From: an uncultured archaeon
GTDB taxonomy: Archaea; Iainarchaeota; Iainarchaeia; Iainarchaeales; GCA-2688035
Assembly (NCBI GenBank): GCA_964354805.1
Contig: CAYHBD010000043.1
Location: forward strand, 1 to 43,382
Direction: 5' to 3'
Length of the DNA: 43,382 bases
Position 1 is the stretch's first letter. Every line of letters begins with the position of its first letter. The notes under the pieces are model-generated. The model saw only the letters and a list, made by a program, of their open reading frames with translations, made no database searches and had not been told where the DNA came from. Positions 8,885 to 38,188 of the stretch are shown here, piece by piece. Position numbers and translations under genes: made by a program.

Positions 8885-10171
8885 TTAGTTCTTTTTTTTC
8901 CCGAGAACCGACAGCAAGTATTTTGCCCCGCTTGCCAGCAGTTTAGGGTTTTTTGCAATTCTTTTCAAAGCATAGCCTGGCCTGAGGTAAACGCTTTTGT
9001 ATGCTTTTTTGTACATGCTTTCAACCAATTCCCTGTTGAGGCAGCCGTACTCGTAGTATGCTTTGCCTGTGTAGCTTCCGTATTTGCTGAAATCCTTTAT
9101 CAGAAACTTCCCCTGTTTTTCAACCAAATCATATAACTGAGTGCCTGGGTAAGGCGTTGTAATAGTGAATTGGATTAAATCCAAATCCAGTTCCTTTGCG
9201 AAATCAATTGTTTCCTGCATTGTTTGCATGTCATCAAAAGGCAGTGCAATCATGAAGAAACCAATTGTTTCAATTCCAGCTTCCTTAGCCCAGCGCACTG
9301 CATCCCTAACCTGCTGCAAATTGATTCTTTTGCCTATTTTGTCCAGAACAGCCTGGTTTCCTGATTCAATGCCAAAGCTGAGCTGGTAGCAGCCAGCATT
9401 ATGCATCAGCCTAAGCAGCTGCGGGTCAACAGAATCAACCCTTACTCCATTCGGGCAATTCCACAAAATTTTAAAGCGCCTTTCAATCATTCCCTTGCAA
9501 ATTTCCTCAACTCTCTTCTTGTCAAGTGAAAAGTTGTCGTCAACAAAACCAATTTCCTTAACGCCATAATTTTCAATCAAATAGCCGATTTCGCTTAAAA
9601 CGTTTGCACTGCTTCTTTTCCTGTACGTGTTTCCAAAAACCCCTTTAAAGCAATAGATGCAGCTGAAAGGGCACCCCCTGCTTGACATAACAGAGAGATA
9701 GTTGTGCTTTCTTGTAACAGCCTTATACTCGTGCAAAGGCAGCCCGCTCCAATCAGGGAAAGGAAGAGTGTCCAGATCCTTGATCAGCTCGCTGTGCAGA
9801 ATTTTTTCCCTGCTTTCAAAAACACGCAAAATGCTATTTTCGCCCTCGCCAACAATCACCTTGTCAGCGTGCTGCAGGCATTCATTCGGAAAAATTGTTG
9901 CATGCGGACCCCCCATCACAACCTTTTTGCCTTGCCTTCTCAAATCGTCGCTCAGGGCAAAAGCCTTTGCAGCAGCAGGCGTGCAAACGCTCAGCCCAAC
10001 CCACTCGCTATCAATGCCTTCAATCTGCTGCCCTGCCTGCTGGTCAATCGGCTTCACAGCAATGCCCTGCCGCTTCAATACTGCTTGAAGGTAAGCGAGC
10101 CAAAGAGGCGGCGATGCATGCGCTGCGTAGACATCAGCAGCCAAATTTATTAAAGTGATTGAATCACGCAT
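8885..10171 (-). CDS. Cobalamin-binding radical SAM protein (paralog 2)
   Basis: PPLWLAYL, GGPHAT, GEGE, SRGCPFSCIYC, GIESG, PYPGT. Confidence 0.92.
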   Translation of the reverse strand: MRDSITLINLAADVYAAHASPPLWLAYLQAVLKRQGIAVKPIDQQAGQQIEGIDSEWVGLSVCTPAAAKAFALSDDLRRQGKKVVMGGPHATIFPNECLQHADKVIVGEGENSILRVFESREKILHSELIKDLDTLPFPDWSGLPLHEYKAVTRKHNYLSVMSSRGCPFSCIYCFKGVFGNTYRKRSSANVLSEIGYLIENYGVKEIGFVDDNFSLDKKRVEEICKGMIERRFKILWNCPNGVRVDSVDPQLLRLMHNAGCYQLSFGIESGNQAVLDKIGKRINLQQVRDAVRWAKEAGIETIGFFMIALPFDDMQTMQETIDFAKELDLDLIQFTITTPYPGTQLYDLVEKQGKFLIKDFSKYGSYTGKAYYEYGCLNRELVESMYKKAYKSVYLRPGYALKRIAKNPKLLASGAKYLLSVLGKKKN

Positions 10172-10240
10172 AGTTGAACCAACCGTTAATAAAAATAAAC
10201 AAAAACAAATTATTAAAAAAACATTAACAACAAAAAAAAA

Positions 10241-10312
10241 TTAATTTAAAAAAATCAACAAATTAATTAAAGTGATTGAGTTCGCCATAGTTGCACCAAT
10301 AAGTTAATAAAT
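10241..10312 (-). repeat. Decayed upstream duplicate of the 5' end and leader of the 8885..10171 gene
   Basis: The copy at 10288 reads MANSITLINLLIFLN* versus gene MRDSITLINL; leader ttattaacttattggtgcaact versus ttattaacggttggttcaact; offset 117 nt. Confidence 0.85.
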
Positions 10313-10376
10313 AATCAACAAGGTAAATTATTTTAATACCCTTAAATTAAAAGAACCTCTGGGTTGCTGATTTTTT

Positions 10377-11792
10377 ATGAACATTGTTTTCTTGAACCCT
10401 CCTTTCAAGGAGGGCTACAACAGGGAAGTCAGGTTCCAGGCTGTTTCACCCCAAAAAGCACTGCACCCGCCGATAATGCTTGCATATGCAGCTGCTGTCT
10501 GCAGGCAACAGGGCCACAAAGTCGACTTAATTGACGCGCCCGCACTCGAGCTTTCAGCAGAGCAGACAATTGAAAGGATTGTGGCAATTAAGCCAAGCTA
10601 TGCTGTTCTGCTTACATCAACAGCATCAGTGCAGAGCGATGCAGCGCTTGCAAAAAAAATAGCAGCCCTAACAGGCGCTAAAACAGTTGCAGTAGGAGTG
10701 CACGCTACGGCAGCTCCAGAAGACACCCTGCAGAAAGGATTTGACATAGTTGCAAGAGGCGAATATGATTACACAATAAGGGACTTGGCCAATGGAACGG
10801 AATTGCGCAAAGTGCTGGGCATTTCTTTCAAAAAAGGAAAAAAAATAATTCACAATGAGCCACGCCCTCTAATACGCAACCTTGATGAACTGCCTTTTCC
10901 AGCAAGGGAATTCCTGCCGAATGAAAAATATTACAGCGCATTGTACAAGAACCCATTCACTTTTGTCCTGGCAGGCAGGGGCTGCCCTAACCAGTGCATT
11001 TTCTGCGCCGGCCCGAAACTGATGTTTGGCAGGGCTTACAGGCTGAGGTCACCGCAAAACATTGTTGCAGAATTGAAGCATCTTAAGGAAAACTTTAATT
11101 TCAAAAGCGTCCTCTTCAATGACGACACTTTGAATGTAAACAAAAGCCATCTGCTTGAATTATGCAGCCTCATGGTAAAAGAAAAAATCGACTTGCCCTG
11201 GGCTGCCTACAGCAGGGTTGACACTGTTGACAGGGAGATAGCAGCAGCAATGAAAAAAGCAGGCTGCTTTTTGGTAAAGGTCGGCTTTGAGTCAGGCTGC
11301 AATGAATTGCTGCAGTCAATGAAAAAAGGCCCAAGGGCAACAACAGAACAGGCAATTAAATGCGCCCACTATTTCAAAGAGGCAGGCATCCAGGTGCATG
11401 GAACATTTGTTTTCGGAATGCCAGGCGAAACAGCGGAAACAATAAGAAAAACAATTGATTTCGCAAAAAAGCTTGACATTGATTTCGTTCAATTCAGCAT
11501 AGCCCAGCCTTATCCAGGCACAGAATTTTACAATTACCTTGAAAGCAACGGCATGCTATGCTTCAATGAATGGAGCGACTACCTTGATGCAGAGGGCAGA
11601 ATCACCCCTATATTTGAGTACCCGCATTTAAGCAAGAGCGAGATGTGCTACTGGATAAAGCAGGCATACAAAGAATACTATTTGAGGCCAAGCTATATCC
11701 TTAAAGCACTAAGGCAGAGGGCAACAAACTGGAATCTGCTCAAAACAAGCATTTCAAGCGCCTTCAATCTGATTCAGTACATGAGAAGCTGA
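10377..11792 (+). CDS. Cobalamin-binding radical SAM protein (paralog 3, HpnJ-like features)
   Basis: PPIMLAYAAA, GVHAT, RGEYD, GRGCPNQCIFC, GFESG, HGTFVFGMPGE, PYPGT. Confidence 0.92.
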   Translation: MNIVFLNPPFKEGYNREVRFQAVSPQKALHPPIMLAYAAAVCRQQGHKVDLIDAPALELSAEQTIERIVAIKPSYAVLLTSTASVQSDAALAKKIAALTGAKTVAVGVHATAAPEDTLQKGFDIVARGEYDYTIRDLANGTELRKVLGISFKKGKKIIHNEPRPLIRNLDELPFPAREFLPNEKYYSALYKNPFTFVLAGRGCPNQCIFCAGPKLMFGRAYRLRSPQNIVAELKHLKENFNFKSVLFNDDTLNVNKSHLLELCSLMVKEKIDLPWAAYSRVDTVDREIAAAMKKAGCFLVKVGFESGCNELLQSMKKGPRATTEQAIKCAHYFKEAGIQVHGTFVFGMPGETAETIRKTIDFAKKLDIDFVQFSIAQPYPGTEFYNYLESNGMLCFNEWSDYLDAEGRITPIFEYPHLSKSEMCYWIKQAYKEYYLRPSYILKALRQRATNWNLLKTSISSAFNLIQYMRS

Positions 11793-11806
11793 CAGCCGGC
11801 GATTGA

Positions 11807-11971
11807 ATGAAAATACTTTTCAAAACATCAGCCTTTTCAAAATCAAAAGAAGATGAACAAAATGAAAATCCTGTTCATAACATCAACTTTTCTGAAATCA
11901 AAAGAGGATGAACAAAAATGAAAATACTTTTCATAACCTCAACCTTCCTGAAATCAAAAGAGGATGAACAG
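11807..11971 (+). repeat. Three tandem copies (55-56 nt period) of the first 18 codons of the GT4 gene
   Basis: ATGs at 11807, 11862 and 11918 read MKILFKTSAFSKSKEDEQ, MKILFITSTFLKSKEDEQK* and MKILFITSTFLKSKEDEQL... Confidence 0.95.
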
Positions 11972-13165
11972 CTTGACTTTGTATTTGAGGTGGCAAGCGC
12001 TTTCAAAAGAAAAGGCCACGAGGTAATGGTGTTGGCTGCGCATGGCGCTGGCGCACAAAAACAGCATTCAATTGACGGAATAAAAGTAAGGCGCTTCCAA
12101 TACTTTTGGCCAGGCAAAATGCAAAGAATAGCTTACGGCGCTGGAATAGCCCAAAACATTAGAAACAGCCTGCTTGCAAAAGCGCAATTCATTCCATACA
12201 TAATAAGCTGCGCGCTTGCAACCAGAAAGGCAGTGAAAGAATTCAAGCCAGACATTGTCCAGGCATTGTGGAGCTTTCCTCAAGGCTTTGCTGCAGCGCT
12301 TGCAAGAAAGACAATGCGATTTCCGCTTGCAATGCACTTGTTTGGAGCAGAAATATACCTGGCCAAGGGCTTGCACATGCCTTTTCTTGCCACTTGGCCA
12401 ACAAGCCATGCTGACATGCTGACAGCAAACAGCGAGGCAACAAAAAAAGCGGCAATCTCACTTGGCATAAAGAAGCCAATAAGCGTTCTATTCTGCGGCG
12501 GAGTGAATATGCAAAGATACAATCCAAAAAACAACGGCAGTGAAATAAGGAAAAAACACGGCTTCCTGAAAGAGGAAATTATTTTTGTAATGGGCAGATT
12601 GGTTGAAAGAAAAGGGCATGTTTTTCTGGTTAGGGCAATGCCGTTAATATTGAAGCGCTTTCCAAACGCAAAGCTGATAATCGGCGGCGGTGGCCCGGAA
12701 GAAGAAAACATCAGGAAAGAAATAGGGAAACTAAATCTGCAGCAGAACGTGATTTTGACCGGAAGAATACCAATACCCTTACTCCCAAAATATTATGCCG
12801 CCTGTGATGTCTTCTGCCTGCCTGCAATCATTGACAGCAAAGGCGAAACAGAGGGGGGTCAAGGATTGGTCATAGGCGAGGCAATGGCATCTGCTAAGCC
12901 TGTTGTTGCATCAAACGTTGGCGGCATACCTGATGCAATAAAACACAATGAAAATGGCTTGCTTGTTGAACAACGAAACCCAAAGCAGCTTGCAGATGCA
13001 ATCTGCAGGATTCTCTCGGACAAAGCGCTTTCGGCAAGGCTTTCAAAAGCTGGAATTTCCTTTGTTGCCAGGGAAGCAAGCTATGATGTGTACGTTGACA
13101 GGTGCATTGAAAACTACGAAAAAATGCTGAGCAAGCTATCTAATCATGTTAAGGAAAATTCTTAA
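11918..13165 (+). CDS. GT4 (GT-B) glycosyltransferase
   Basis: MGRLVERKG, GGGP, DVFCLP, EGGQGLVIGEAMASAKPVVASNVGGIPD. Confidence 0.92.
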   Translation: MKILFITSTFLKSKEDEQLDFVFEVASAFKRKGHEVMVLAAHGAGAQKQHSIDGIKVRRFQYFWPGKMQRIAYGAGIAQNIRNSLLAKAQFIPYIISCALATRKAVKEFKPDIVQALWSFPQGFAAALARKTMRFPLAMHLFGAEIYLAKGLHMPFLATWPTSHADMLTANSEATKKAAISLGIKKPISVLFCGGVNMQRYNPKNNGSEIRKKHGFLKEEIIFVMGRLVERKGHVFLVRAMPLILKRFPNAKLIIGGGGPEEENIRKEIGKLNLQQNVILTGRIPIPLLPKYYAACDVFCLPAIIDSKGETEGGQGLVIGEAMASAKPVVASNVGGIPDAIKHNENGLLVEQRNPKQLADAICRILSDKALSARLSKAGISFVAREASYDVYVDRCIENYEKMLSKLSNHVKENS

Positions 13166-15254: not shown

Positions 15255-16337
15255 TCACTTCTTCACGGCTTCCGCGCAAATCTGCAAAAATTTTTCAGCA
15301 GAGGGCTTGATATCAAATTTGCGTTCAACTGTTTTTCTTGCAGCCCTGCCAAGCCTGGCCCTCAAGCTGGGATTGCTGTACAATTTTTTTATTGCCTCAG
15401 CAAGTTCGTCATCATCCCTAACCAAAAAACCGTTTTTGCCGTCCTCAATAATGCTGTTCAGGACGCTTACATCGCTGCCGACAACAGGCTTCCCAAATGC
15501 CATTGCCTCGATTGCAGCCATTGAAACTCCGAGAACCGAGCCGCTTGCCCTGAAGGGCAGAACAACGAAATCGCAGCTGTTCAACAATGGCAAGTGTTTT
15601 TGCGGTTCACCGAAGAAAGTAATGCCTTTCATTGATTTAATTTCCTGCTGCAACTGATTCGCCATTGTTCCGCCCTCGTAGTCAGTTCCGGCAAAAACAA
15701 GCTCTGCATTCCGCAAGCGCAGCTGCTTGAATGCCTGCAGCAGCCTGTCAGGGCCTTTGATATAATGGAAGTGCCCGAAAAAGCCGATCATTATTTTTCC
15801 GCTCTTTTTGATTTTTTGCTTTGGAAAAAGCGAAAGGTCAAGGCCTGGCAAAAGCAAAACAGCTTTATTGCCAGCTGCCTTCGAAAAATATCTGTACAGG
15901 GAATTGTTTGTGCAAATTACTTTGCCAACAAATGCAGTTCCTGTTCCAAGAAGCATTGGGGGAATTTCATTGTTGAATTCTGTTAACTGGTGCAGTATAA
16001 ATGGGGTGTTTCCAAGGGCAATTCTCATGCAAACAAGCAGTGGCGGAAGCAAAATGGAGGAGGAAAGCCCTGAGCCGAAAACAACAAGGTCAGGTTTCAG
16101 CTTTTTTGCCGCAATGGCGGCATTCAATGCAAACGGCTGCGGAACCCTGATTGTCTTGAATTCTGTTTCCTTCTTCTTATCCCTCTCTTCAAGGTTTTCA
16201 AGGGCAATTACAGTCAAGTCTGCCTTTTTGCGCAGCTCGGCGCACAGCCTCGAGGCATACTGCAGTGTTCCGCTCACCCTTGGCAGTGGGGGAAAATTCT
16301 TTGTAATGTAAACCAGCCTGAGTTTAGAAGAAGCCAT
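15255..16337 (-). CDS. GT4 (GT-B) glycosyltransferase
   Basis: FFGHFHYIKG, DFVVLP, IEAMAFGKPVVGSD, DGKNGFLV. Confidence 0.88.
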   Translation of the reverse strand: MASSKLRLVYITKNFPPLPRVSGTLQYASRLCAELRKKADLTVIALENLEERDKKKETEFKTIRVPQPFALNAAIAAKKLKPDLVVFGSGLSSSILLPPLLVCMRIALGNTPFILHQLTEFNNEIPPMLLGTGTAFVGKVICTNNSLYRYFSKAAGNKAVLLLPGLDLSLFPKQKIKKSGKIMIGFFGHFHYIKGPDRLLQAFKQLRLRNAELVFAGTDYEGGTMANQLQQEIKSMKGITFFGEPQKHLPLLNSCDFVVLPFRASGSVLGVSMAAIEAMAFGKPVVGSDVSVLNSIIEDGKNGFLVRDDDELAEAIKKLYSNPSLRARLGRAARKTVERKFDIKPSAEKFLQICAEAVKK

Positions 16338-16352
16338 GGCAATCAGTGCATT

Positions 16353-16426
16353 TTACCTTCCGATTCCAAAACAAATTTTTTTAAAAAATCAAAAAAATGT
16401 TACCTTCCGATTCCGAAATAAATTAT
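16353..16426 (-). repeat. Tandem duplicate of the last codons and stop of the 16400..17689 gene
   Basis: Gene end att tat ttc gga atc gga agg taa; copy 47 nt downstream att tgt ttt gga atc gga agg taa. Confidence 0.85.
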
Positions 16427-17689
16427 GCCTTTTTCGATTATGCCATGCTTGTCCAGGCAGTTCCTTGCATCAACAATGCTTTTAACCCTGTTTTTCTTGA
16501 GGAAAGCAGGGGAAAGCTTTTCAACAAATGCTTTATGATGCGTTGCCAATACAATGCAGTCTGCTTTGCTGACGGCCTGCTTGAGGGATTGCACAGCACT
16601 CAAGCCAGGCAGGAAAGGGTCGAATGCAATCGGCTTAATGCCCCTCCTTTTTAGCAGCTGGATTATTTTTATTGCAGGGCTTTCCCTTGTGTCATCGACA
16701 TTCGGCTTGTACGCAAGGCCCAATACAACAACCCTTGCCTTAGCAGGCTTTAATCCAAGCCTGTGCAGGCTCTTTGCAGCAAGCGAAACAACATGCAATG
16801 GCATTGAATTGTTTATCTCCCTTGCAAGCTGCAAAAACCTGTGGGTAAAGCCAGCTTCTTTTGCCCTTGCAATCAAATAGTATGGGTCCTGCGCAATGCA
16901 GTGGCCTCCAACGCCTGGCCCAGGCCAGAAAGGCATGAAGCCAAAGGGCTTTGTTGTCGCTCCCTTAATCACTTCGCTTAAATCAACCCCCATTTTTTCA
17001 AAGCTTTTCGCAAGCTCGTTCACAAAAGCTATGTTTATGTCCCTGAAAGTGTTTTCAACAACCTTCACTGCCTCGGCTTCCTCAGGCTTGCTGAGCGCAA
17101 CTATTTTCGCTTTAATTATTTTCCTGTAAAAGGAAAGCCCTTTCCTTTCGCCCTCCTTGCTCAAGGCAGAAAAAACCCTTGATATGTTCTGCAAACGCCA
17201 TAGCTTGTTGCCTGGGTCAATCCTTTCAGGGCAGTGGGCCAAAAAGAAGTCTCGCTCTGCTTTCAGACCGCTGCTTTCAATTATAGGCTTGACTATGTGC
17301 CTCAGCGTTCCAGGGTAAACAGTTGACTCAATAACAATAAGCGGCTTTTTTTCAGGCTGCAAATGCATGGCAATTGCTTTGCACGCGCTCCTCACAGGCT
17401 TTAAATCAGGCTTGTTTCCCTTTGCTGGAGTGGGAACGCAGACAACTATTATGCCGCAGCCCTGCATTGCGATTTTCGGATTGCTGCTCACCGCAATTTT
17501 TTTGTACACGCTTTTCAGATTTTTTTCCAGCATCTCATCCTTAATCGGGCTTTTTCCATTGCGAATCAAAGAAACCTTTTTTTTATTCAAATCAAAGCCC
17601 TTTACATTGAAGCCCTTTGCAGCGCAAAGGCATGCAAGAGGCAGGCCTACATAGCCCAAGCCAACAATGCAGACAGTATCTTTCACCAT
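16400..17689 (-). CDS. UDP-N-acetylhexosamine dehydrogenase (WbpA/WecC family)
   Basis: GLGYVGLP, CVPTP, ESTVYPG, CPERIDPG, KVVENTFRDINIAFVNE, TKPFGF, GPGVGGHCI, DTRESP. Confidence 0.93.
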   Translation of the reverse strand: MVKDTVCIVGLGYVGLPLACLCAAKGFNVKGFDLNKKKVSLIRNGKSPIKDEMLEKNLKSVYKKIAVSSNPKIAMQGCGIIVVCVPTPAKGNKPDLKPVRSACKAIAMHLQPEKKPLIVIESTVYPGTLRHIVKPIIESSGLKAERDFFLAHCPERIDPGNKLWRLQNISRVFSALSKEGERKGLSFYRKIIKAKIVALSKPEEAEAVKVVENTFRDINIAFVNELAKSFEKMGVDLSEVIKGATTKPFGFMPFWPGPGVGGHCIAQDPYYLIARAKEAGFTHRFLQLAREINNSMPLHVVSLAAKSLHRLGLKPAKARVVVLGLAYKPNVDDTRESPAIKIIQLLKRRGIKPIAFDPFLPGLSAVQSLKQAVSKADCIVLATHHKAFVEKLSPAFLKKNRVKSIVDARNCLDKHGIIEKGIIYFGIGR

Positions 17690-18076: not shown

Positions 18077-19489
18077 TCAGCTACGCATTATTGTAAGAAA
18101 GCCCTTTGCCAGGATTTTAATGTCCTCAATTCCCCTGATTGACAGAACCCTCTGCAAAAGGTAACTCGGCCTTAAATAGAATTCCCCGTAAGCCTTTTTA
18201 TGCAATTCTATTAACTCCGGCCCACTCAATCCTTTTGGAACATACAATGGCTTTTCCAAAAAATTGAAGTCTGGAACTATTTCATCCAGCCAATAAGATG
18301 GCCTGCTCAGCTCGCCGTTTTTCACTATCCGGCTGTAGGCATCAGTTCCAGGCCAAGGCATGAAAAAAGTGAATGTCGCAATAGTTGGATTCAACTGCTT
18401 TGCAAAACTGATTGTTTGCAGTATGTCCTGCCGTGTTTCACCAGGCAACCCAACAATGAAATAGCCCCTAATGCCAATGCCGACTTTTTTTGTCAAAGCA
18501 AATGTTTCCAAAACCTTTTCCTTTGAAAAACCCTTTCTAATTGAATCAAGCACTGGCTGGCTGCCGCTTTCAACGCCGTAAGCAATATACTGGCATCCTG
18601 CCTCTTTCAGGCTTTGCAGCATCGGCCTGTCAACGCAGTCAACCCTTGCCTCGCAGCTAAACGTTAGGTCCCAATGCTGCTCCTTAATCAATTCACAAAT
18701 CTTTATCACCCTTTTCTTGTCAACAGTGAAGTTGTCATCCCAGATGCCGATGTCCCTTGCCTTATACTTTTCAACCAACAACTGTATTTCCCCAATCACT
18801 CTTTCAGGCGAATGCGCCCTGAATGACCTGCCAAAGATATTCTTATCGCAGAAAGTGCAGTTAAAAGGGCAGCCCCTGCTTGTGATAAGGCAGTGCGAGG
18901 GCATCCTCTTGGACCTGGCCCCGCTGCCTGTGTACAAGTGCATAGGCAACAAGTGCCTTGCCGGCAAAGGCAGCTCATCAATGTTCTTGATGAAAGGCCT
19001 CTCTCCGGTGAAAACAGGCTTTTTGTTCTTTTTGAAATAAACCCCCTTGACTTTTGCAATGCTTTTTCCTTTCTCGGCAGCGCCGACCAGTTCGGTTATA
19101 GTCCTCTCGCCTTCCCCGCACACAACAAAGTCAACACTGCCCTGCCCTATTACCTCAAGCGGGATTGCCGTCGCGTGGGGCCCGCCGAAAATAATCGTTG
19201 CACCGCTTGCAGCTTTTATGGCGTCAACCGCTTCAAAAGCCCTTTTCACAAAAGAGGTGTAAGCGCTCACTCCGACAAAATCAAAATGCTGCGCACCTGC
19301 AGAAATTCTTTCTATGCTGGTTTCCTCAGCAATGCCGTCAATGATGCGCACATTGTGGCCAGCCTGCTCAAGAGCAGCAGCGATGTACGCAAGGCCCAAA
19401 GGCTCGACCTTGCTTTGGGCAACAGCCGCGCCTCTCCTGTAAAGCTCTGCCTTTGAAAGGGGCGGGTTTATGAGCAAAACACTTGCCAA
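18077..19489 (-). CDS. Cobalamin-binding radical SAM protein (paralog 4)
   Basis: EPLGLAYIAA, GGPHAT, GEGE, SRGCPFNCTFC, GVESG, YFIVGLPGE, PWPGT. Confidence 0.92.
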   Translation of the reverse strand: MASVLLINPPLSKAELYRRGAAVAQSKVEPLGLAYIAAALEQAGHNVRIIDGIAEETSIERISAGAQHFDFVGVSAYTSFVKRAFEAVDAIKAASGATIIFGGPHATAIPLEVIGQGSVDFVVCGEGERTITELVGAAEKGKSIAKVKGVYFKKNKKPVFTGERPFIKNIDELPLPARHLLPMHLYTGSGARSKRMPSHCLITSRGCPFNCTFCDKNIFGRSFRAHSPERVIGEIQLLVEKYKARDIGIWDDNFTVDKKRVIKICELIKEQHWDLTFSCEARVDCVDRPMLQSLKEAGCQYIAYGVESGSQPVLDSIRKGFSKEKVLETFALTKKVGIGIRGYFIVGLPGETRQDILQTISFAKQLNPTIATFTFFMPWPGTDAYSRIVKNGELSRPSYWLDEIVPDFNFLEKPLYVPKGLSGPELIELHKKAYGEFYLRPSYLLQRVLSIRGIEDIKILAKGFLTIMRS

Positions 19490-19732
19490 AACAAAACACT
19501 TCCAGTAAAAGATTAAGCAAAAAACGTTAAAAAGAGCTTTGCATGCCGCTTAGCGAAACTCCCTCTCCAAGAAACTTTTGGAAAATCGATTCATCAAAAA
19601 GCCTTTTTTGCTAATGCAAAAAAGCCTTGGGAAAAAAATGCCTTCGGCAAAAGTGGCAATAAATAAACTTTATATGCCACAAAAAAATGCCGGAAATTTT
19701 CATAAAAAAAAACGCCGATTGCAAAAGCGGCC

Positions 19733-22591: not shown

Positions 22592-22642
22592 CTGCTTTTT
22601 TTCTTCAAATCACTAAAAAAAAATAAATAATTCTTTTTAAAT

Positions 22643-22731: not shown

Positions 22732-22788
22732 AAATGTTTTTTTAAACCCAAACCAATAAAGCAAAAAACCAATTTTAAAAATTTATAT

Positions 22789-23760
22789 TTAAAAAGCAAA
22801 GCGAACTTTTTTTTCAGCCTGAAAGAAAATAAAGCCTGTTAAGCCGAGCAACAGGGCGCAAAATAGTATAAGCAGCGAAAAAGAAACAGCTGAATCCGCT
22901 GTTATGCCCACCAAGCCAAGGAAAAAAATAAGGCCGGCCTCCCTTGTGCCAATGCCGCTGAATGCGATTGGCAGCACGCTTAACAATTCAACAAGCGGCA
23001 TTATTGCAATAAGGTAAACAAAGGAAACATTGAGGCCAAGGGAATTGGCAATTAAATAGTATTGCAATATTCCCACAATCCAGCAAAAAAAAGTAAGCAA
23101 TAAAATCATTAAAAGGAACAATTTTTTTGATTTATATACAGCCACCCCTTCAAAGAACTGGTTAAAGCCGCCCCTAAAATTGCTCTGCAGCCTTTTTGGA
23201 ATTAAATGCCTGTAAAAAGGCTTTACAAAAAACAAAACAATTTCTTTTTTCGTTAAAATGAACACAAGCGCAATAAACGCCATGAAAAACAAAAGCAATG
23301 GCAGAATCAGTTCAGCCTCTAAAATGAAATGAAAAGACACAATAGCAAAGCCAACCAATGAAAGCAAGAACAAAGCAGCAACATCAAAAAATCTTTCAAT
23401 TACAACAGCGGTAAGGCCTTTGCCTGCTACAACCCCTGTTTTGCTTGCAAAGTAGAAGCTTTTAACCAAGTCACCTGACCTGCCAGGGCTTATTATTGAA
23501 AAGAAAAAACCAATCAGCCAAATCCTGGCGGAATCAAATAAACTCAATTTAACAGCAAAGGTGTTAACCAAAAGAGCCTGCTTGAATGCTTTGAGCAAAA
23601 CACTTGGAACGATTGCGATTAACGCAATTGAAAAAAGCAACGGATTCAACCGCAAAAAAATCCCGATTATTTTGCTTGGGCCGATTGCGAAAACAATGAA
23701 AAGGAAAACAATCAAGCCAATTAATCCGAGGTAACGCAGTAACCGCATAAAAACCAACAA
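22789..23760 (-). CDS. UPF0104 / LPG-synthase TM domain flippase-like protein (AglD2-like)
   Basis: ISPGRSGDLVK, ERFFD, LPIAFSGIGTREA; probable ATG at 23748. Confidence 0.88.
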   Translation of the reverse strand: MLVFMRLLRYLGLIGLIVFLFIVFAIGPSKIIGIFLRLNPLLFSIALIAIVPSVLLKAFKQALLVNTFAVKLSLFDSARIWLIGFFFSIISPGRSGDLVKSFYFASKTGVVAGKGLTAVVIERFFDVAALFLLSLVGFAIVSFHFILEAELILPLLLFFMAFIALVFILTKKEIVLFFVKPFYRHLIPKRLQSNFRGGFNQFFEGVAVYKSKKLFLLMILLLTFFCWIVGILQYYLIANSLGLNVSFVYLIAIMPLVELLSVLPIAFSGIGTREAGLIFFLGLVGITADSAVSFSLLILFCALLLGLTGFIFFQAEKKVRFAF

Positions 23761-23775
23761 AGCAAAAGCAATTTT

Positions 23776-23943
23776 TTACATCCTGCTTTTTTCCAAAGCC
23801 AAGCCAACACCATCAACAATGCACAGCAATGCAATCCCCAAAAGCCAAGCCAACAATCTCAACAATGCACAGCAATCCCAATCCCTCAAACCAAGCACTC
23901 ACCCAAAGCCAACCCAACAATTTCAACAATGCACAGCAATTCC
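23776..23943 (-). repeat. Three tandem copies of the 3' end of the DegT gene
   Basis: LLCIVEIVGLALGECLV* (gene), LLCIVEIVGLAFGDC, LLCIVDGVGLALEKSRM*. Confidence 0.9.
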
Positions 23944-25057: not shown

Positions 25058-26032
25058 TTACTCTATCGCTTTCCCCTCTTTAATGCCCTTAATGTAATTT
25101 GGAATCCCTTCTTCAATACTATAACGCGGCTTGAAGCCAAGCAGTTTTCTTGCTTTGCTGTTGTCCAAAGCGCCCCTGCTCGGCACCCTGTCACCGCTTT
25201 CTTTTTCCAGCAGCTTTGCGCCGGGAATATTCTTTGCAACAATGGAAGCAAAGTCTTTTATTGTTCTTCCATCGCCTCTTGTGATGTTGAAAACCTGGTT
25301 TGCCGCTTTTTCGCTTTTTGCAGCAGCTACAATTCCTGCCGCTGTGTCGCTTACGTAAGTGAAATCAAGCTTGTTTTTCCCGCCATCATACAGCAGCAAC
25401 GGCTTTCCACCCAAAGCGTTTTCAATGAAAACCTTTGAAACCCTGTCATAGCTGTCCCCGGGGCCATAGACAGCGCTTGGCCTGACAATAGTCCACTGCA
25501 ATCCGAATTTGCTGCCATAAGCTTTTGTAAGGATTTCGCAGCTCAGCTTTGTTCCGCCATAGACATCAATCGGGTTCGTCTGGTGCTTTTCATCAGCAGG
25601 CTCATACTGGAAGTCGCCGTAGACAAAGCTGCTTGAAGCAAAAACAAGCCTTTTCACCGAATCTGTTCTCCTCACAGCCTCAAGGACATTAATTGTCCCA
25701 TTCAGGTTTATGTCAATTGCGTCCTCCGGGAACTGATTGCTTTTCCTTGCATCAGGGATTGCCGCCAAGTGAATCACAATCTCTGGCTTTGCCTCCTGCA
25801 GCGCCCTTATTACCTCCAACTTGTACCTGACGTCGCCCCTGATGACATTCAGTTTCTCCTTCAAGTCATTGAAGCGCAGCGCCAATTGCTTTTCATAATC
25901 ATATTTTAATCTGTCACTATAGTTTACAAAGCTGTCGAAAACAAATAATTCGTCTTCCCCTTCCTTCAACAGATTTCTGCAGCAATAGCTTCCAATGAAT
26001 CCAGCTCCGCCGGTAATCAAAATCTTAGCCAC
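25058..26032 (-). CDS. NAD-dependent epimerase/dehydratase (extended SDR)
   Basis: [40 protein letters not shown] 26032 follows AGGGTG; the track start is 26041. Confidence 0.92.
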   Translation of the reverse strand: MAKILITGGAGFIGSYCCRNLLKEGEDELFVFDSFVNYSDRLKYDYEKQLALRFNDLKEKLNVIRGDVRYKLEVIRALQEAKPEIVIHLAAIPDARKSNQFPEDAIDINLNGTINVLEAVRRTDSVKRLVFASSSFVYGDFQYEPADEKHQTNPIDVYGGTKLSCEILTKAYGSKFGLQWTIVRPSAVYGPGDSYDRVSKVFIENALGGKPLLLYDGGKNKLDFTYVSDTAAGIVAAAKSEKAANQVFNITRGDGRTIKDFASIVAKNIPGAKLLEKESGDRVPSRGALDNSKARKLLGFKPRYSIEEGIPNYIKGIKEGKAIE

Positions 26033-26122
26033 AACCAACACCCTTCATTACACACCAACAATCAAAATCTTAGCCACAACCAACACCTTTCTTTACACAA
26101 CAACAATCAAAATCTTAGCCAT
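26015..26122 (-). repeat. Three tandem 45-nt-period copies of the epimerase 5' end
   Basis: Starts at 26122 (MAKILIVVV*), 26077 (MAKILIVGV*) and 26032 (MAKILITGG...). Confidence 0.93.
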
Positions 26123-26148
26123 ATTCAATAAAGCTATGGGAATGATAC

Positions 26149-32059: not shown

Positions 32060-32794
32060 TCAAGGCACAAATTGTTTTCTCGCTCTCTCAAGCGCTGCAG
32101 GCCATCCAATGTCAAACCATTTTTCAAAATAAGTGTAGCCATACACAACGCTGTTTTCAATCAGCCAAATCATGAAATAACCCATTTTGTCAGCATTGTT
32201 CCCTTCAGCAATAAAGCGGTGCAATAATCGCACCTTTTCTCGCGGAAAGAAGTAAATTCCAAGCGAGGTAAGCGTGCTCTTCGGATTTGGGTCTTTCTCC
32301 TGGAACAAAACGAATTTTCCGCCCTTGCCAACAACAGCAATGCCCTGCTCCCTTGCAACCTCCATGCTTTTGCTGTCCCACAACGCATTCACAATTGCCC
32401 TCTTTTTCTTAAAGAAATTGAATACAGGCAGCAGGCCGAAATTGTACAAATTGTCTCCGGCAACAACAAGCAGGTCATCGTCAATCTTTTCCCTTTCAAC
32501 CACAAGCTGTATGTCCCCAACCTGGCCGAGCCTGTCATCGTTGCTTGTTGTGCCGTCATTCAAAATTTTTATCTGCAGTCTTGATTTGAAACCTTTAATC
32601 CACTCGCTGAAATTTTTGAAAAACCTTGCATTTGTAACAATAAAAACCCGCTCAACACCAGGCAACTGCTCAATCCTGTGAACAATGTGTTCAATGATTG
32701 GCTTTCCCTTAACATCAAGCAGCGCCTTTGGCTTATCCTTAGTCAAAGGATAAAGCCTTGTTGCATAGCCGGCCGCCGGAATAATTACCTGCAT
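32060..32794 (-). CDS. Sugar-1-phosphate nucleotidyltransferase
   Basis: AAGYATRLYPLT..PKALL, AGDN, WFDIG. Confidence 0.9.
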   Translation of the reverse strand: MQVIIPAAGYATRLYPLTKDKPKALLDVKGKPIIEHIVHRIEQLPGVERVFIVTNARFFKNFSEWIKGFKSRLQIKILNDGTTSNDDRLGQVGDIQLVVEREKIDDDLLVVAGDNLYNFGLLPVFNFFKKKRAIVNALWDSKSMEVAREQGIAVVGKGGKFVLFQEKDPNPKSTLTSLGIYFFPREKVRLLHRFIAEGNNADKMGYFMIWLIENSVVYGYTYFEKWFDIGWPAALERARKQFVP

Positions 32795-32799
32795 CTAAA

Positions 32800-32859
32800 T
32801 CAACCTAGTTTATGGAAATTTTTTGCAGCAAAAGCAGCTGCCGGAATAATTACCTCCAA
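32800..32859 (-). repeat. Decayed upstream duplicate of the nucleotidyltransferase 5' end
   Basis: (TTG)EVIIPAAAFAAKNFHKLG* versus gene MQVIIPAAGYATRLYPLT; shared aggtaattattccggc; offset 65 nt. Confidence 0.85.
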
Positions 32860-32892
32860 AAAGCATTACTCCAAACAACAATTGCTTTTGCT

Positions 32893-34200
32893 TTACAGCC
32901 TTCCGATGCTAACGTAATTGAAGCCAAGCTGCCTGAGCTTGGCCGGGTCAAAAATATTCCTCCCGTCGCACACAACAGGCTGTTTCATCAATTCCTTCAC
33001 TTTATTGAAATCAATTTTTTTGAACACGCCCCATTCCGTCAGAAAAAGCAGTGCATCAGCATCTTTTGCAACCTCATACATATCATTGCAGTATTCAATG
33101 CCTGGCAGGATTGCTCTTGCCCTCTCCATTGCCTCAGGGTCAAATGCCTTGACCTTTGCACCTTCTTTCAGCAACTCATTGACTATGTCAATGCTGGGCG
33201 CAAAACGCATGTCATCAGTGTCGGGCTTAAAAGCCAAACCCAAAACACCGATTGTTTTCCCGTTCAGAACCCACAAAATGTCCTCAACCTTTTTTACAAA
33301 CAAGCGCCTCTGCTGCTGGTTTATTTTCTGCACCTCTTTCAGCAAAGCAAAGTCATAGCCGCTTCTTTCCGCAATCCAAATGAATGCATCAACGTCTTTC
33401 GGGAAGCAGAAGCCGCCATAACCAAGGCCTGCATTCAAAAAGCTGGGTCCGATCCTTTTATCCAGGCCCATTCCCAAAGCAACTTCCTGCACGTTTGCAC
33501 CAGTCTTCTCGCAGATGTTCGCAATTGCGTTAATGAAGCTTATTTTCGCCGCGAGAAAGCTGTTTGAAGCATGCTTAATTATCTCTGCGCTTTTAATATC
33601 AGTAAAAACAATCCTTGCTTTCAGCGGCGCATAAAGTTTTTGCATAACAACACGGGCCTCTTCGCTGTTCGTGCCAATAACAATCCTGTCAGGGAACAAA
33701 AAGTCTTCAACTGCGCTGCCCTCCCGCAAAAACTCAGGATTGCTCACAACCATGTGCTGAATGCATTTCCCGGCTTTGGCGTGAGCATTGCTGCAATGCA
33801 GAATCTGCTCAATCCTCTCGCCTGTAAGCACAGGCACAGTGCTTTTCTCGACAACAATCTTTGGCTCGGTTGCGATTGCGGCAATGCCCCTGGCAACATT
33901 TTCCACAAAGCTTAAGTCAGCGCCGCCATCCTGCCTCGGCGGTGTTCCGACTGCAATGAAAATCGCTTCACAATGCTGCACTGCTTCCCTGAAATCCGAG
34001 GTGAAACGCAGCCTTCCGGCCTTTGCGTTCTTTTTAATCAGCTCCGGCAATCCGGGCTCAAAAATCGGGCAATTGCCGCTGTTCAACACCTTAATTTTTT
34101 TCTCATCAATGTCCTGGCAGACAACATCGTGGCCCATGTCAGCAAAGCAGCCTGCGGCAACCAGGCCGACATAGCCCGCCCCTATAACGCTGATTTTCAT
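32893..34200 (-). CDS. ugd: UDP-glucose 6-dehydrogenase
   Basis: GAGYVG, AVGTP, KSTVP, SNPEFLREG, KHASNSFLAAKISFIN, GYGGFCFPKD, FKPDTDDMR. Start MKISVIG at 34200; the track start is 34245. Confidence 0.95.
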   Translation of the reverse strand: MKISVIGAGYVGLVAAGCFADMGHDVVCQDIDEKKIKVLNSGNCPIFEPGLPELIKKNAKAGRLRFTSDFREAVQHCEAIFIAVGTPPRQDGGADLSFVENVARGIAAIATEPKIVVEKSTVPVLTGERIEQILHCSNAHAKAGKCIQHMVVSNPEFLREGSAVEDFLFPDRIVIGTNSEEARVVMQKLYAPLKARIVFTDIKSAEIIKHASNSFLAAKISFINAIANICEKTGANVQEVALGMGLDKRIGPSFLNAGLGYGGFCFPKDVDAFIWIAERSGYDFALLKEVQKINQQQRRLFVKKVEDILWVLNGKTIGVLGLAFKPDTDDMRFAPSIDIVNELLKEGAKVKAFDPEAMERARAILPGIEYCNDMYEVAKDADALLFLTEWGVFKKIDFNKVKELMKQPVVCDGRNIFDPAKLRQLGFNYVSIGRL

Positions 34201-34304
34201 TTGCCGCACCGTAAACCATTCTGAATTTAAAATTAAATCCTGCACCAGCCCTGTTTAATGGCCGATGCAAAAAGGCAATCCGGAATTAAATTGGGACAGA
34301 AGCC

Positions 34305-34348
34305 TTTAAATATATTACTAATTCATATAATGTATGAAAAGGTATGAA
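34305..34348 (+). promoter_or_regulatory. TATA box plus candidate RHH operator
   Basis: TTTAAATA 34305-34312; TCATAT 34323-34328; GTATGA 34332-34337 and 34342-34347. Confidence 0.55.
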
Positions 34349-34388
34349 TAGAGGCAGGGGCAATCAGCACAATTAGAGGTGAAGTTGC
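34344..34388 (+). repeat. Decayed upstream duplicate (45 nt) of the RHH gene 5' end, carrying the SD
   Basis: atg aat aga ggc agg ... aca att aga versus gene atg aac agg ggc agg ... aca atc agg; ends in GAGGTGA just before ATG 34389. Confidence 0.8.
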
Positions 34389-35204
34389 ATGAACAGGGGC
34401 AGGGTAACTATTACAATCAGGAATGACCTGCTGCAGCAGGTTGACAGGCTGGTTGACGGATTGAACATCAGGAGCAGAAGCCAGGCTGTCGAATTTTTGC
34501 TGAGCAAGTTTTTGTCTGATTACAGGGTAAGGGATGCATTGATTCTTGCAGGCGGCAGAAAGCGGGACATAATATTGCAGGGCAGGGCAAAATTTTTGGC
34601 TGACATAAACGGAAAAGCCCTGCTGCAAAGGGTCATGGACCAGATGAGCGGATTCCGGATAAACAATTTCATTGTCTATGTTGACAGCGAAGCAGAGCAG
34701 ATAATGCAGGCAGTGCAAAGAAGCAGCCTGCCTTATAATGTGGATTTCATTGCCGGAAAAAAGCCGAGCGGAACAGTGCAGCCACTGCTGTTGGCTAAAA
34801 GCAGGTTAAGCGACACCTTTCTTGCAGCATACGGCGATACTATAACAAACCTTAACCTGAATGACATGCTTTCTTTCCACAGGAAAAACGGCAGCATTGC
34901 AACAATTGCCCTTACAACAGTGAGCAACCCAAGGCAGTATGGGGTGGCGGTTCTGCAGGGCAACAAAATTGTCGAGTTCGAGCAGAAGCCAAAGCGGGAA
35001 GCCCACAGCTTTTTGATCAATGCAGGGATTTTTTTGTTTGAGCCTGAAATTTTCAAATACATCGGAAGAAAAATGCATGACTTGGAGAAAGAGCTTTTCC
35101 CGCACCTGGCTGAAAAAGGCCTTCTGTACGGCTACCCGTTCCAGGGAATTTACCTGAACGTGAACACTAAAGCGGACCTGGATAAAGCAAGGGCGCTACT
35201 GTAA
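34389..35204 (+). CDS. Ribbon-helix-helix (NikR/CopG-type) domain fused to a degenerate sugar nucleotidyltransferase domain
   Basis: N-terminus RVTITIRNDLLQQVD...RSRSQAVEFLL; then LILAGG, YGD, QYGV, EFEQKP, INAGIFLFEP; the GxGTR loop is absent. Confidence 0.85.
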   Translation: MNRGRVTITIRNDLLQQVDRLVDGLNIRSRSQAVEFLLSKFLSDYRVRDALILAGGRKRDIILQGRAKFLADINGKALLQRVMDQMSGFRINNFIVYVDSEAEQIMQAVQRSSLPYNVDFIAGKKPSGTVQPLLLAKSRLSDTFLAAYGDTITNLNLNDMLSFHRKNGSIATIALTTVSNPRQYGVAVLQGNKIVEFEQKPKREAHSFLINAGIFLFEPEIFKYIGRKMHDLEKELFPHLAEKGLLYGYPFQGIYLNVNTKADLDKARALL

Positions 35205-36288: not shown

Positions 36289-36375
36289 TGATGCTGCAAA
36301 ACTAAATTGTAAAAGCCAGTAAATTTCTCAAACAACGTTTAATTAATTCCTTTTCTTCTCCAGTCTGTTCTTCGC

Positions 36376-37245
36376 TTACAATTTCTTCAAAAAACATTCA
36401 ACTATCTTTTTTTCTTGCCCAACCTGCGCTTCGCTAACATTTGTCCCGTGCTCGAAAATAATTGGAATGCGCTTAATTTGGTGCACTTCTCTGAACAGCT
36501 GCAATTGCCTTTCCGAGCAGATTGCGCTATGGTCATCCCTGTTGTGGGCGCCGCTTTCTATTTCGCTCCAGTGCATGTGCACTTCCGCAATCCTTTCGCC
36601 GAATTTTGCAACCAGCTCTTTCGCTTTGCCCTCAAAAAGCGCGTGCCCGAAATCAAATAAAAGGCGCAGTTCAGGAAAAAGCGCAAATGTTTTCGCAAAT
36701 TCATCAGGCTTTGCTACAATAGGCCTTGCCTCTGCTCCATGAATGTTCTCAATTGCAAGCGCTACGCCGGTATCCTGCGAAAGCTTTAACGCGTATTCAA
36801 TCACTTTGCAGAAATTCTGCCAGCTTTTCTCAGGGTCAAGCTGCTTTTCCGCAATCAGAACATCAAAGCCCTTCACGCTGTCAAAACCCCAGCCAAGCTC
36901 ATTCAGAAAGCCAGGGTGAATTCCCACAACGCTTGCTTCAACAATCCCCGCTGCCTTGAACAAATTGTCAATTGTTTCCTTGTTCTGTTTGTTCAATCCA
37001 AGCGATGGATTGAACCAGAACCTTTCCCTTGGCGCTGGAAAAAGGCTGTGAATAGTGTAATTCTTTTCAGGAAAATCGCGCTTTATCCTTCTCACTGTTT
37101 TCCAGGCATTTGCTTCAAACCTGTGCCCTGCCCCCAATTCAGCTGTTTCAAAGCCCAAACCAAAAACGCTTTTAACAGAATCATACAATCCCTTGCCCCT
37201 GAAAGCAAAATAGCTGCTGCTCAGGCCAAGCAAAGGGCAAGACAT
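36376..37245 (-). CDS. Xylose-isomerase-like / AP endonuclease 2 TIM-barrel protein
   Basis: TIHS, IHPG, LAIEN, FDFGHA, EVHMH, DDH, IFE metal-ligand pattern. Confidence 0.85.
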   Translation of the reverse strand: MSCPLLGLSSSYFAFRGKGLYDSVKSVFGLGFETAELGAGHRFEANAWKTVRRIKRDFPEKNYTIHSLFPAPRERFWFNPSLGLNKQNKETIDNLFKAAGIVEASVVGIHPGFLNELGWGFDSVKGFDVLIAEKQLDPEKSWQNFCKVIEYALKLSQDTGVALAIENIHGAEARPIVAKPDEFAKTFALFPELRLLFDFGHALFEGKAKELVAKFGERIAEVHMHWSEIESGAHNRDDHSAICSERQLQLFREVHQIKRIPIIFEHGTNVSEAQVGQEKKIVECFLKKL

Positions 37246-37367
37246 TTCAGGTCAGATTAATAGGTTATTTAATTCAATTTAAATGAATTGGTGCAGCGGT
37301 TGAACAGTTCCCAAGCAGCACTAACTAATAATATAAATTTTTACTAACCCAATTTACTTTGGTTTCA

Positions 37368-37414
37368 ATGGACCTGGGAATAAAGAAAGCATTCATTCTG
37401 GCAGGTTGGTCTGA
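37368..37414 (+). repeat. Upstream duplicate (47 nt) of the nucleotidyltransferase 5' end
   Basis: MDLGIKKAFILAG versus gene MGIGISKAFILAG. Confidence 0.88.
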
Positions 37415-38188
37415 ATGGGCATTGGAATAAGCAAGGCATTCATTTTGGCTGGAGGCTTGGGCACTCGGTTAAGGCCTGTTACTTATGAGCTTAGCAAGCT
37501 TATGCTGCCAGTGCAGGGAAAGCCAATACTGCAGTGGAACATTGAGCTTGTTAAAAGATTCGGCATCAGTGACATAACTCTTGCAGTAGGCTTCAAGCAC
37601 GAGCAAATCCAGCAATTCTTTGGAAGCGGGGAAAAGCTTGGCGTAAAAATTCACTACAACATTGAGAAAGAATACATGGACACAGCAGGTGCATTGCGTA
37701 TTGCGGAACAGCATTTAAAGGGAGAAAAAAAATTCATTGGAATGAACGGCGATGAATTGAAGGACATTGACTTCAGCGCAATGAGCGCAGTGCATGAAAA
37801 AAACAATGCGATTGCAACAATTGCATTGGCCAGTGTTCCGTACAGGCACGGCGGCGGCGTAGTGAAAACAGAAGGAAACATTGTTACTGAATTCAGCGAA
37901 AAGCCTGCTGACGAGCAGCCTGGAAACAAGCTGATTCACGCAGGCGCATACATCCTCTCGCCGGAAATTTTTGGATTCATTGAAGGGGGCAAAAAAGTCA
38001 GCATTGAAAAGGAAGTATTCCCGCTGCTCGCTGAGAAAGGCAGGCTGTGCGGAGTTGACATGGCAGGCAGGCAGTTCCTGCAGACAGACAACTTTGAAAG
38101 ATACGAAAAAGCAATTTTCGAATGGAAGGGATTTTCAGCAAACGGCAAAAACAAAAAGATTGAACAAATCCAAAAGAGCGAAGAATAA
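37415..38188 (+). CDS. Sugar-1-phosphate nucleotidyltransferase (Man-1-P guanylyltransferase-like)
   Basis: LAGGLGTRLRPVT, DTAGAL, NGD, FSEKP, AGAYIL, SIEKEVFP. Confidence 0.9.
   Translation: MGIGISKAFILAGGLGTRLRPVTYELSKLMLPVQGKPILQWNIELVKRFGISDITLAVGFKHEQIQQFFGSGEKLGVKIHYNIEKEYMDTAGALRIAEQHLKGEKKFIGMNGDELKDIDFSAMSAVHEKNNAIATIALASVPYRHGGGVVKTEGNIVTEFSEKPADEQPGNKLIHAGAYILSPEIFGFIEGGKKVSIEKEVFPLLAEKGRLCGVDMAGRQFLQTDNFERYEKAIFEWKGFSANGKNKKIEQIQKSEE

Follow-up and report, generated by a model that had tools for sequence, protein, structure and literature searches.

Short duplicated gene ends in a glycan-synthesis cluster of an Iainarchaeota genome and their possible origin

Spare gene ends in the window

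The window considered here is a whole stretch of 43,382 nucleotides (nt), contig C43 of a metagenome-assembled genome of a DPANN archaeon (Iainarchaeota; 1.38 Mb in 49 contigs, 88.5% complete) whose bin includes a full-length archaeal 16S rRNA gene. The genes across the range 10141-37460 form a glycan-synthesis cluster with four B12-binding radical SAM enzymes, glycosyltransferases of the GT1/GT2/GT4 types, two UDP-glucose/GDP-mannose dehydrogenase-family genes, three nucleotidyltransferases, one DegT-type aminotransferase and one NAD-dependent epimerase. Within this range, eight gene ends are accompanied by short spare copies of their own codons. Such copies had been noticed in a first-pass annotation of this DNA, and all eight loci were recovered at the positions given there by combining repeat searches of the window with a reading of the sequence. 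Tandem Repeats Finder delimits arrays at 11806-11970 (period 56, 3.0 copies), 23795-23896 (period 46), 26015-26121 (period 45, 95% matches) and 37359-37449 (period 47), and a direct-repeat search yields the pairs 10142/10259, 16350/16397 and 32758/32823. Each pair was then read in the sequence, and it consists of the first or last codons of a gene together with a second copy outside that gene. The spare start and stop positions previously assigned are also exact, those at 26077 and 26122 provided that the epimerase starts at GTG 26032 and not at GTG 26041. The copies are distributed as follows.

Duplicated 5' ends
10142..10182, minus strand: working copy, start and first 10 codons of the radical SAM gene 8885-10171 (ATG 10171), plus 11 nt upstream
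10259..10299, minus strand: spare 5' copy 117 nt upstream, 34/41 matching, ATG 10288 kept, opening a 15-codon mini-open reading frame (mini-ORF)
11804..11859, plus strand: oldest spare copy, 55-nt unit, about 80% identical, first 18 glycosyltransferase codons, ATG 11807
11860..11915, plus strand: second spare copy, 50/56 matching, all five coding differences silent
11916..11971, plus strand: working copy, start 11918 of the GT4-family glycosyltransferase gene 11918-13165
26015..26059, minus strand: working copy, Shine-Dalgarno (SD)-like GAAGGGTG, probable start GTG 26032 and first codons MAKILI of the NAD-dependent epimerase gene
26060..26130, minus strand: spare copies, one full (42/45 matching) and one partial
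32758..32793, minus strand: working copy, first 12 codons of the nucleotidyltransferase gene 32060-32794
32823..32858, minus strand: spare 5' copy 65 nt upstream, 28/36 matching, between gene 32060-32794 and the end of the upstream gene 32893-34245
34344..34388, plus strand: spare copy of the 5' end of gene 34389-35204, one complete 45-nt unit with an identity of about 70%
37359..37405, plus strand: spare 5' copy, 47-nt unit, 79%, ATG 37368
37406..37452, plus strand: working copy, AGGTTGG motif, ATG 37415 and first 12 codons of the nucleotidyltransferase gene 37415-38188

Duplicated 3' ends
16392..16426, minus strand: working copy, last codons (…YFGIGR) and stop of the UDP-glucose/GDP-mannose dehydrogenase-family gene 16400-17689
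16345..16379, minus strand: spare 3' copy with its stop, on the downstream side at a distance of 47 nt; the next gene begins shortly after it, at 16337
23886..23940, minus strand: working copy, present C-terminal tail (…LLCIVEIVGLALGECLV*) of the DegT-family aminotransferase gene 23886-25019
23758..23885, minus strand: two spare tail copies, periods 64 and 46 nt
36351..36439, minus strand: extra weak pair absent from the first-pass annotation, spacing 59 nt, 23/30 matching, 3' end of gene 36376-37245

At the glycosyltransferase start, three units of 55/56 nt occupy 11804-11971 and provide spare ATGs at 11807 and 11862. The mini-ORF opened at 11862 comprises 19 codons and its stop is the TGA of an 'ATGA' at the real start, while the GAGGATGA preceding 11918 corresponds to the duplicated codons K-E-D-E. 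The joints at 11860 and 11916 carry one or two extra A residues. A similar arrangement of about 2.5 units of 45 nt covers 26015-26130 at the start of the epimerase, where the spare mini-ORFs encode MAKILIVGV* (GTG 26077) and MAKILIVVV* (ATG 26122). The longest reading frame of this gene, 25058-26041, begins at GTG 26041; judging from the conserved MAKILI N-terminus and the SD-like motif ahead of it, GTG 26032 is probably the true start. The mini-ORF from 37368 has 20 codons and runs 16 nt past the real start 37415. The weakest locus is the copy at 34344, which was aligned by eye and missed by the automatic scans; it supplies the GAGGTGA ahead of ATG 34389, corresponding to I-R-N-D codons. In the protein encoded by 34389-35204 the nucleotidyltransferase domain starts at residue 50, after a 49-residue N-terminal extension (MNRGRVTITIRNDLLQQVDRLV…) without Pfam match, and the duplicated part represents the first codons of this extension. 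The 76 nt separating the 10142 and 10259 copies are A-rich and contain a 31-nt repeat of their own; A-rich low-complexity tandem repeats (periods 21-31 nt) occupy parts of the spacers 10186-10262 and 39481-39538.

At the 3' ends, the junction at 16345 holds two gene-end copies in the host genome (G000) and three in each of the sister-genus genomes G012 and G001, that is, two spare copies each. The spare copies of G012 and G001 keep ATAATTTATTT, which matches the gene end of the host genome and not their own. Past the spare copy, at 16328-16339, lies ATGCACTGA, a two-codon frame (M-H-stop) immediately before the conserved string upstream of the next gene, TGATTGCCATGG. At 23758-23940 there are three copies of the aminotransferase tail, spaced 46 and 64 nt. 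The present tail reads …GLALGECLV*, and the distal spare, translated by eye, …GLALEKSRM*, closer to the …ELALKKSGSCA* of a metagenome relative, L010, whose aminotransferase is 72% identical. The stop of the distal spare lies 4 nt before the start of the next gene (TTG 23760). Given its likeness to L010 and this 4-nt junction, the distal tail looks ancestral, and the current C-terminal tail of the aminotransferase seems to be a by-product of duplication.

It had been proposed that much of the intergenic DNA here is made of gene termini. This turned out to be true for 564 of 2490 intergenic bases (23%) and for 8-9 of 24 junctions, so that gene ends do contribute to the spacers and 'much of' overstates their share. 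The accompanying claim that some 5' copies form mini-ORFs or place SD-like motifs before real starts was borne out, and these motifs derive from duplicated codons. In the genome-wide scan described below, the window holds seven loci that are not inside genes against three expected (Poisson p = 0.03).

Regarding the surrounding genes, the four B12-binding radical SAM paralogues are located at 8885-10171, 10377-11792, 18077-19489 and 26921-28384. The first two are divergent, and 9118-9213 matches 11449-11544 in inverted orientation at about 72%.

Abundance, placement and change of the copies across the genome

All 49 contigs were scanned for direct repeats at offsets of 30-200 nt with at least 24/30 matches, after removal of low-complexity sequence. 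This revealed 165 loci against none in locally shuffled sequence, and a looser threshold of 23/30 gave 221 loci against five in the shuffle. Genes were called simply as longest ORFs (1344 genes, 89% coding), a procedure whose limitation is felt especially at start codons. With this gene set, the enrichment at gene ends proposed from the window alone was found throughout the genome: 71 loci span a gene end, where random placement predicts 29.7 (binomial p ~1e-13), and 23 are wholly intergenic (8.2 expected), whereas only 71 lie inside genes (127 expected). The period is divisible by three in 64 of the 71 in-gene pairs and in 34 of the 94 pairs elsewhere, which is about one third. Depletion from coding sequence with in-frame survivors inside genes, a feature of short tandem duplications, is thus found here. 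The depletion and the frame bias together are what purifying selection leaves behind when the input is spatially uniform. In agreement with a uniform input, the ratio of end-spanning to intergenic loci is 3.1, and 3.6 is expected when random placements are classified in the same manner.

The distances between copies are concentrated in a narrow band. In the host genome the 94 pairs outside genes show a mode at 50-59 nt (36 pairs) and a median of 55 nt, and 72 of them fall at 40-69 nt; the whole range extends from 31 to 141 nt without a spike at one value. In the relatives the mode is 40-49 nt and the median 49 nt. Convergent and co-directional junctions hardly differ in their frequency of 3' copies, which were found at 21 of 478 and 35 of 818 ends, respectively.

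The manner in which the spare copies change was followed through the substitution ratio between copy and gene, one of the checks suggested at first pass. Mismatches between working and spare copies amount to 18.5, 16.9 and 23.4% at codon positions 1, 2 and 3. Such counts are too crude, because synonymous first-position changes of Leu and Arg codons are missed, and the method of Nei and Gojobori was used in their place. Applied to 86 gene-end pairs, it yields a proportion of synonymous differences (pS) of 0.336 and of nonsynonymous differences (pN) of 0.174, and thus a pooled pN/pS of 0.52, with 0.54 for the 5' copies. A free copy beside a strongly constrained one is expected to yield about 0.5-0.6, and two working alleles 0.1-0.2. 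By these ratios, the spare copies evolve as non-coding DNA. Premature stops and frameshifts occur in them; among 30 spare 5' copies the start codon is kept in 18 and lost in 12, and the stops of the mini-ORFs take positions between -69 and +17 with respect to the real start. A decay of the spare copies towards A/T was not seen, with 192 changes from G/C to A/T and 173 in the reverse direction (p = 0.35).

Not all pairs have the same structure. Whole units are repeated head to tail at 11804-11971, 26015-26130, 34344-34433, 37359-37452 and 23758-23940 of the window, and genome-wide the match covers at least 85% of the unit in only about one third of the end-spanning pairs. The other pairs are made of a block of roughly 30-45 nt at about 78% identity and a spacer. 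Block identity stays near 78% in every class of unit coverage, a value set by the detection threshold, so that comparing identity with coverage was uninformative as a test of age. Unrelated spacers are frequent among these pairs, their composition is that of ordinary intergenic DNA, and in the search for their templates the only matches were to a dispersed hairpin repeat.

One pair outside the window illustrates an interaction of the two repeat phenomena of this genome: at G000:C16:23248-23360, two copies identical over 27 nt are spaced by 86 nt, and the dispersed hairpin repeat is inserted in the spacer. Dispersed repeats, probably of the hairpin family, are also present in the window. The intergenic segments 19566-19687 and 22629-22732, some 105-120 nt long, have counterparts elsewhere in the genome (C8:49808-49925 and C10:38353-38459) at 83-84% identity, and a 16-nt tandem, AAAAAAGCCTTCGGAA, is found at 19618-19652.

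State of the same junctions in relatives

Comparison with sister genomes had also been proposed as a check, and it gives the copies a direction. The G022 orthologue of the gene at 11918 has a single copy of the duplicated codons, placed 11 nt after the upstream stop; in G001 the glycosyltransferase junction is single-copy and flush (TGAATG); and the G009 spacer orthologous to 10172-10376 contains no spare copy. These junctions show that the copies of the window are derived. Their persistence was evaluated in about 1.2 Mb sampled from G009, G016, G004 and G038, which belong to other genera. Copies were present at 1 of 46 ends orthologous to copy-bearing ends of the host genome and at 26 of 835 control ends, and therefore there is no long-term conservation of the copies. 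A single exception was examined, the copy at 16345-16379, which is shared in place with G012 and G001.

Duplications have also arisen anew at the same places. L010 has, at positions 2019-2150, a nearly whole-unit duplication of 57 nt in the same aminotransferase gene, which involves non-homologous C-terminal codons. In G012:C73 (L180:1108-1280), a spacer of 121 nt before the glycosyltransferase orthologue is made of copies of the last codons of the upstream gene. Both are independent events at the same junctions as in the window. Sequence from the same species was sought as well; no exact protein match for the glycosyltransferase was found, and the nearest hit of the metagenome aminotransferase scan had 72% amino-acid identity.

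The density of end-spanning and intergenic pairs, measured alike in all sources, was as follows (pairs per Mb).

G000, the host genome: 68
G001 (74 kb sampled): 53
G004: 50
G016: 50
G038, a single-contig genome from another family of the order: 37.5
G009: 15
Unrelated metagenome contigs of similar GC (774 kb): 2.6

G012 contains 11 such pairs in 44 kb, a sample too small for a reliable rate. The host genome exceeds its relatives in the family and order by only 1.3- to 4.5-fold, and the large contrast is the one with unrelated organisms. Accordingly, the high frequency of copies is a trait of the lineage.

Origin of the copies and comparison with known systems

The explanation that we favour, with a probability of about 0.7, is that frequent short tandem duplications with a modal length of 50-59 nt arise in this genome and are filtered by purifying selection, and that what looks like a targeting of gene ends results from differential survival. 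Local duplications, mostly of 40-69 nt, would appear anywhere along the chromosome, with a net rate that is unusually high in this archaeon and its order. Those falling wholly within a gene would shift or lengthen its frame and be purged unless in frame, whereas a duplication across a start or stop, or between genes, would always leave an intact gene and a harmless, slowly decaying fragment; copies would accumulate at gene ends for this reason. Several features of the window could follow as side effects without any selection. Flush or overlapping gene junctions would be pushed apart, a spare 5' fragment would hold its start codon for a while and appear as a mini-ORF, and codons resembling a ribosome-binding site (RBS) would end up before the real start. 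At 3' ends, a frame shift at the joint could create a new stop and leave the ancestral tail downstream, as may have occurred in the aminotransferase at 23886.

Short tandem duplications have been described as universal, nearly neutral, depleted from coding regions and locally recurrent (PMC13167724, PMC8639346, bioRxiv 10.64898/2026.02.28.708716). They are formed in replication, often between microhomologies, increase 7- to 10-fold without Rad27/FEN1, and recur locally in independent yeast lines (PMC13167724). As to the molecular origin and the preference for about 50 nt in the present case, replication slippage or a microhomology-type mis-processing of flaps may be involved; this part of the explanation is kept conditional because FEN1 is present, no Cas1 was found and microhomology arms are not demonstrable.

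Several observations weigh against short tandem duplications filtered by selection. No missing repair gene explains the rate, since FEN1 was found in 5/5 genomes tested and NucS in 4/5. Loss of a flap or mismatch endonuclease was accordingly discarded as the cause, NucS being absent only from G009, which has the fewest copies. A model that draws duplications as segments of the sequence before duplication expects end-spanning and intergenic pairs at 1.4:1, where 3.1:1 is observed; faster fading of pairs with two free copies, or a modest true preference for ends, could produce this excess. A further point is the block-and-spacer structure, which a uniform decay of the whole duplicated unit does not predict. 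In roughly two of three end-spanning pairs the matched block falls short of the period (median ratio 0.67). With a pS of 0.34, two free-running non-coding copies should still be some 65-70% alike; in a fixed register, identity outside the block is at background (27.8% against 27.3% in the control, and 28.9% on the outer side), and gapped similarity to the flank predicted by a tandem unit is detected in only 20-27% of spacers (permutation, z>2). Some blocks are exact over 27-35 nt beside unrecognisable spacers. Several of these exact-block cases proved on inspection to be whole units with insertions and deletions, and one has the dispersed hairpin repeat inside its spacer. Contributions could come from the turnover of non-coding DNA through frequent indels, from short-patch conversion of one neighbouring copy by the other, or from filler introduced when the joint was formed. 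As regards microhomology arms, three of nine two-copy whole-unit pairs extend 8-11 nt past the two copies and six extend at most 1 nt, a reading that the divergence of the copies makes tentative. The stop triplets of spare 3' copies are identical in 32 of 39 cases, against 54% for internal codons. Finally, differences restricted to silent positions at p<0.01 occur in 3 of 77 testable loci where 0.8 are expected, one of them in the window. This is the 11862 copy, with five silent and no replacement differences, which sits in an exact head-to-tail array; a later homologous exchange of the working copy, or chance, would explain its pattern equally well as an illegitimate replacement.

A more far-reaching reading assumes a distinctive duplication-generating process in the order, with a preferred product length of about 50 nt (50-59 nt in the host genome, 40-49 nt in the relatives) and in which core blocks stay alike while the rest vanishes. 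Such a process is possible, if doubtful. It would point to a replication or repair intermediate of fixed size, be it a flap, a primer plus its extension or a staggered break, perhaps with short-patch conversion between neighbouring copies acting in addition, and it would pry overlapping genes apart and seed RBSs, mini-ORFs and C-terminal tails in a streamlined genome.

The two causes advanced at first pass, namely an allele replacement that leaves old termini behind and the selection of leader peptides, are both disfavoured by the data and fit a few loci at most. Imprecise allele replacement of the kind known as homology-facilitated illegitimate recombination, with homology on one side and an illegitimate join on the other, would strand the resident gene end beside the incoming one. 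Glycan-synthesis regions are known to exchange genes, and the window is a cluster of this type; many pairs show a block next to an unrelated spacer, as an inserted foreign flank would give, and the three silent-only loci, including the 11862 copy, are what stranded alleles would look like. A stranded allele should in general differ at a pN/pS of 0.1-0.2, and the pooled value of 0.52 does not have this character. The excess of silent-only loci is small, and the one in the window forms part of an exact tandem array in which later homologous exchange accounts for it equally. Moreover, an illegitimate join does not predict that 72 of 94 distances fall at 40-69 nt, the clearest cases of the window repeat a whole unit head to tail without foreign insert, and 3' copies are equally frequent at convergent and co-directional junctions. 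Allele replacement is thus held to be unlikely. A selected function, with 5' copies acting as leader mini-ORFs or suppliers of RBSs and 3' copies holding the promoter or RBS of the next gene, has a low probability. It draws on the 11862 mini-ORF, whose ATGA overlap with the real start has three parallels elsewhere in the genome, on the SD-like motifs obtained from duplicated codons, on core blocks and stop triplets being kept above expectation, and on the 16345-16379 copy, which is upstream of the next gene and whose counterparts at the same junction in G012 and G001 keep the ancestral ATAATTTATTT. The ATGA overlap arises automatically from period arithmetic, because a period of 2 mod 3 is combined with a gene that begins ATGA. 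The geometry of the 5' copies is not fixed, as seen from the 12 of 30 that have no start and from mini-ORF ends scattered between -69 and +17; their pN/pS is 0.54, and copies are in no excess at orthologous ends (1/46 against 26/835), that is, they are not kept in relatives. The idea of 3' copies as promoter or RBS of the following gene, prompted by the 16345 locus, was rejected as a general explanation, since copies are just as common at junctions that lack a gene downstream, and no conservation across genera was seen.

Two further possibilities concern the way in which the copies came into being in the DNA or in the assembly. In break repair with filler, a staggered break or nicks 30-45 nt apart would be filled in and rejoined with 10-25 nt of filler. 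For animals, the literature describes the filling-in of broken ends as a source of small tandem duplications. It would create the block-spacer-block arrangement at once and is consistent with the sharp edges of some exact blocks with unrelated spacers, with the background identity beyond the blocks and with the extra A residues at the 11860 and 11916 joints. It does not sit well with spacers of ordinary composition that have no template elsewhere except the dispersed hairpin repeat, with the 20-27% of spacers that retain similarity to the flank predicted by a whole unit, or with the exact-block cases that are whole units with insertions and deletions, and no Cas1-type integrase was found in the 88.5%-complete genome. 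For all this, a very low probability is assigned to it. Off-target integration of CRISPR-type spacers was likewise dismissed, as there was no Cas1 match in this genome and the only source found for spacers was the dispersed hairpin repeat. An assembly artefact, in which co-assembled strain variants are joined end to end, had been named from the start as what might undo the observation, and it has some appeal for a 49-contig metagenome bin with a 50-59 nt mode near a common assembler k-mer of 55. The data leave it barely credible. Periods extend from 31 to 141 nt, and no single k-mer length stands out among them. With a pN/pS of 0.52, frameshifts and start codons lost, the divergence between the copies is that of a gene and its dead copy, not that of two working alleles. 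Decay is graded within the three-copy arrays, and nearly every pair inside a gene preserves the frame. The pattern is found again in assemblies made independently, a single-contig genome and a JGI contig among them, and the 16345 copy is common in place to two other genomes.

The duplications have consequences at several levels. For annotation, the longest ORF can begin in a spare copy, as in gene 25058-26041 with its probable start at 26032; upstream mini-ORFs are here mostly debris; and a present C-terminus may be a by-product of duplication, as at 23886. For genome evolution, the system constitutes a natural experiment in which a uniform mutational input is shaped by selection into an apparent targeting of gene ends, and it shows how the flush operon junctions of a streamlined genome gain spacers. 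For mechanism, a testable handle on replication or repair in DPANN archaea, organisms not yet genetically tractable, is offered by the preferred length together with a density 6 to 26 times that of unrelated genomes.

Displaced gene ends are also known at the integration sites of mobile elements, where a spare and silently different gene end stands beside the working one; the copies described here differ in having no intervening element, a spacing of tens of bases and no integrase involved. Leader peptides and upstream ORFs that operate by termination-reinitiation (PMC10666635) are resembled by those 5' copies that are short ORFs ending at or near the start (ATGA, TGATG), and they differ from the present case, where conservation is lacking, the geometry is inconsistent, starts are often lost and the layout follows from period arithmetic. 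Comparison with homology-facilitated illegitimate recombination leads to a similar result. This process has been described for Streptococcus pneumoniae, Acinetobacter baylyi and Pseudomonas stutzeri, and it shares with the present pairs a resident fragment beside an incoming copy and possibly the block with a foreign spacer. It predicts silent differences and variable distances, whereas pN/pS is 0.52 and the distances concentrate at 40-69 nt here. The closest likeness is to the short tandem duplications (MTD; Dan et al. 2021, PMC8639346; PNAS 2026, PMC13167724; bioRxiv 10.64898/2026.02.28.708716) reported in bacteria, archaea and fungi (same sources), which are likewise local and nearly neutral, head-to-tail like the whole-unit arrays of the window, depleted in coding sequence with in-frame survivors, able to grow to three copies and recurrent at the same spots in independent lineages. 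The present case departs from them in a density about 26 times that of unrelated contigs measured alike and in the preferred length of 50-59 nt; microhomology arms are not demonstrable, many pairs have retained no more than a core block, and FEN1, whose loss raises such events in yeast, is present. The phenomenon thus belongs to a known kind of mutation that is unusually frequent in this archaeal order.

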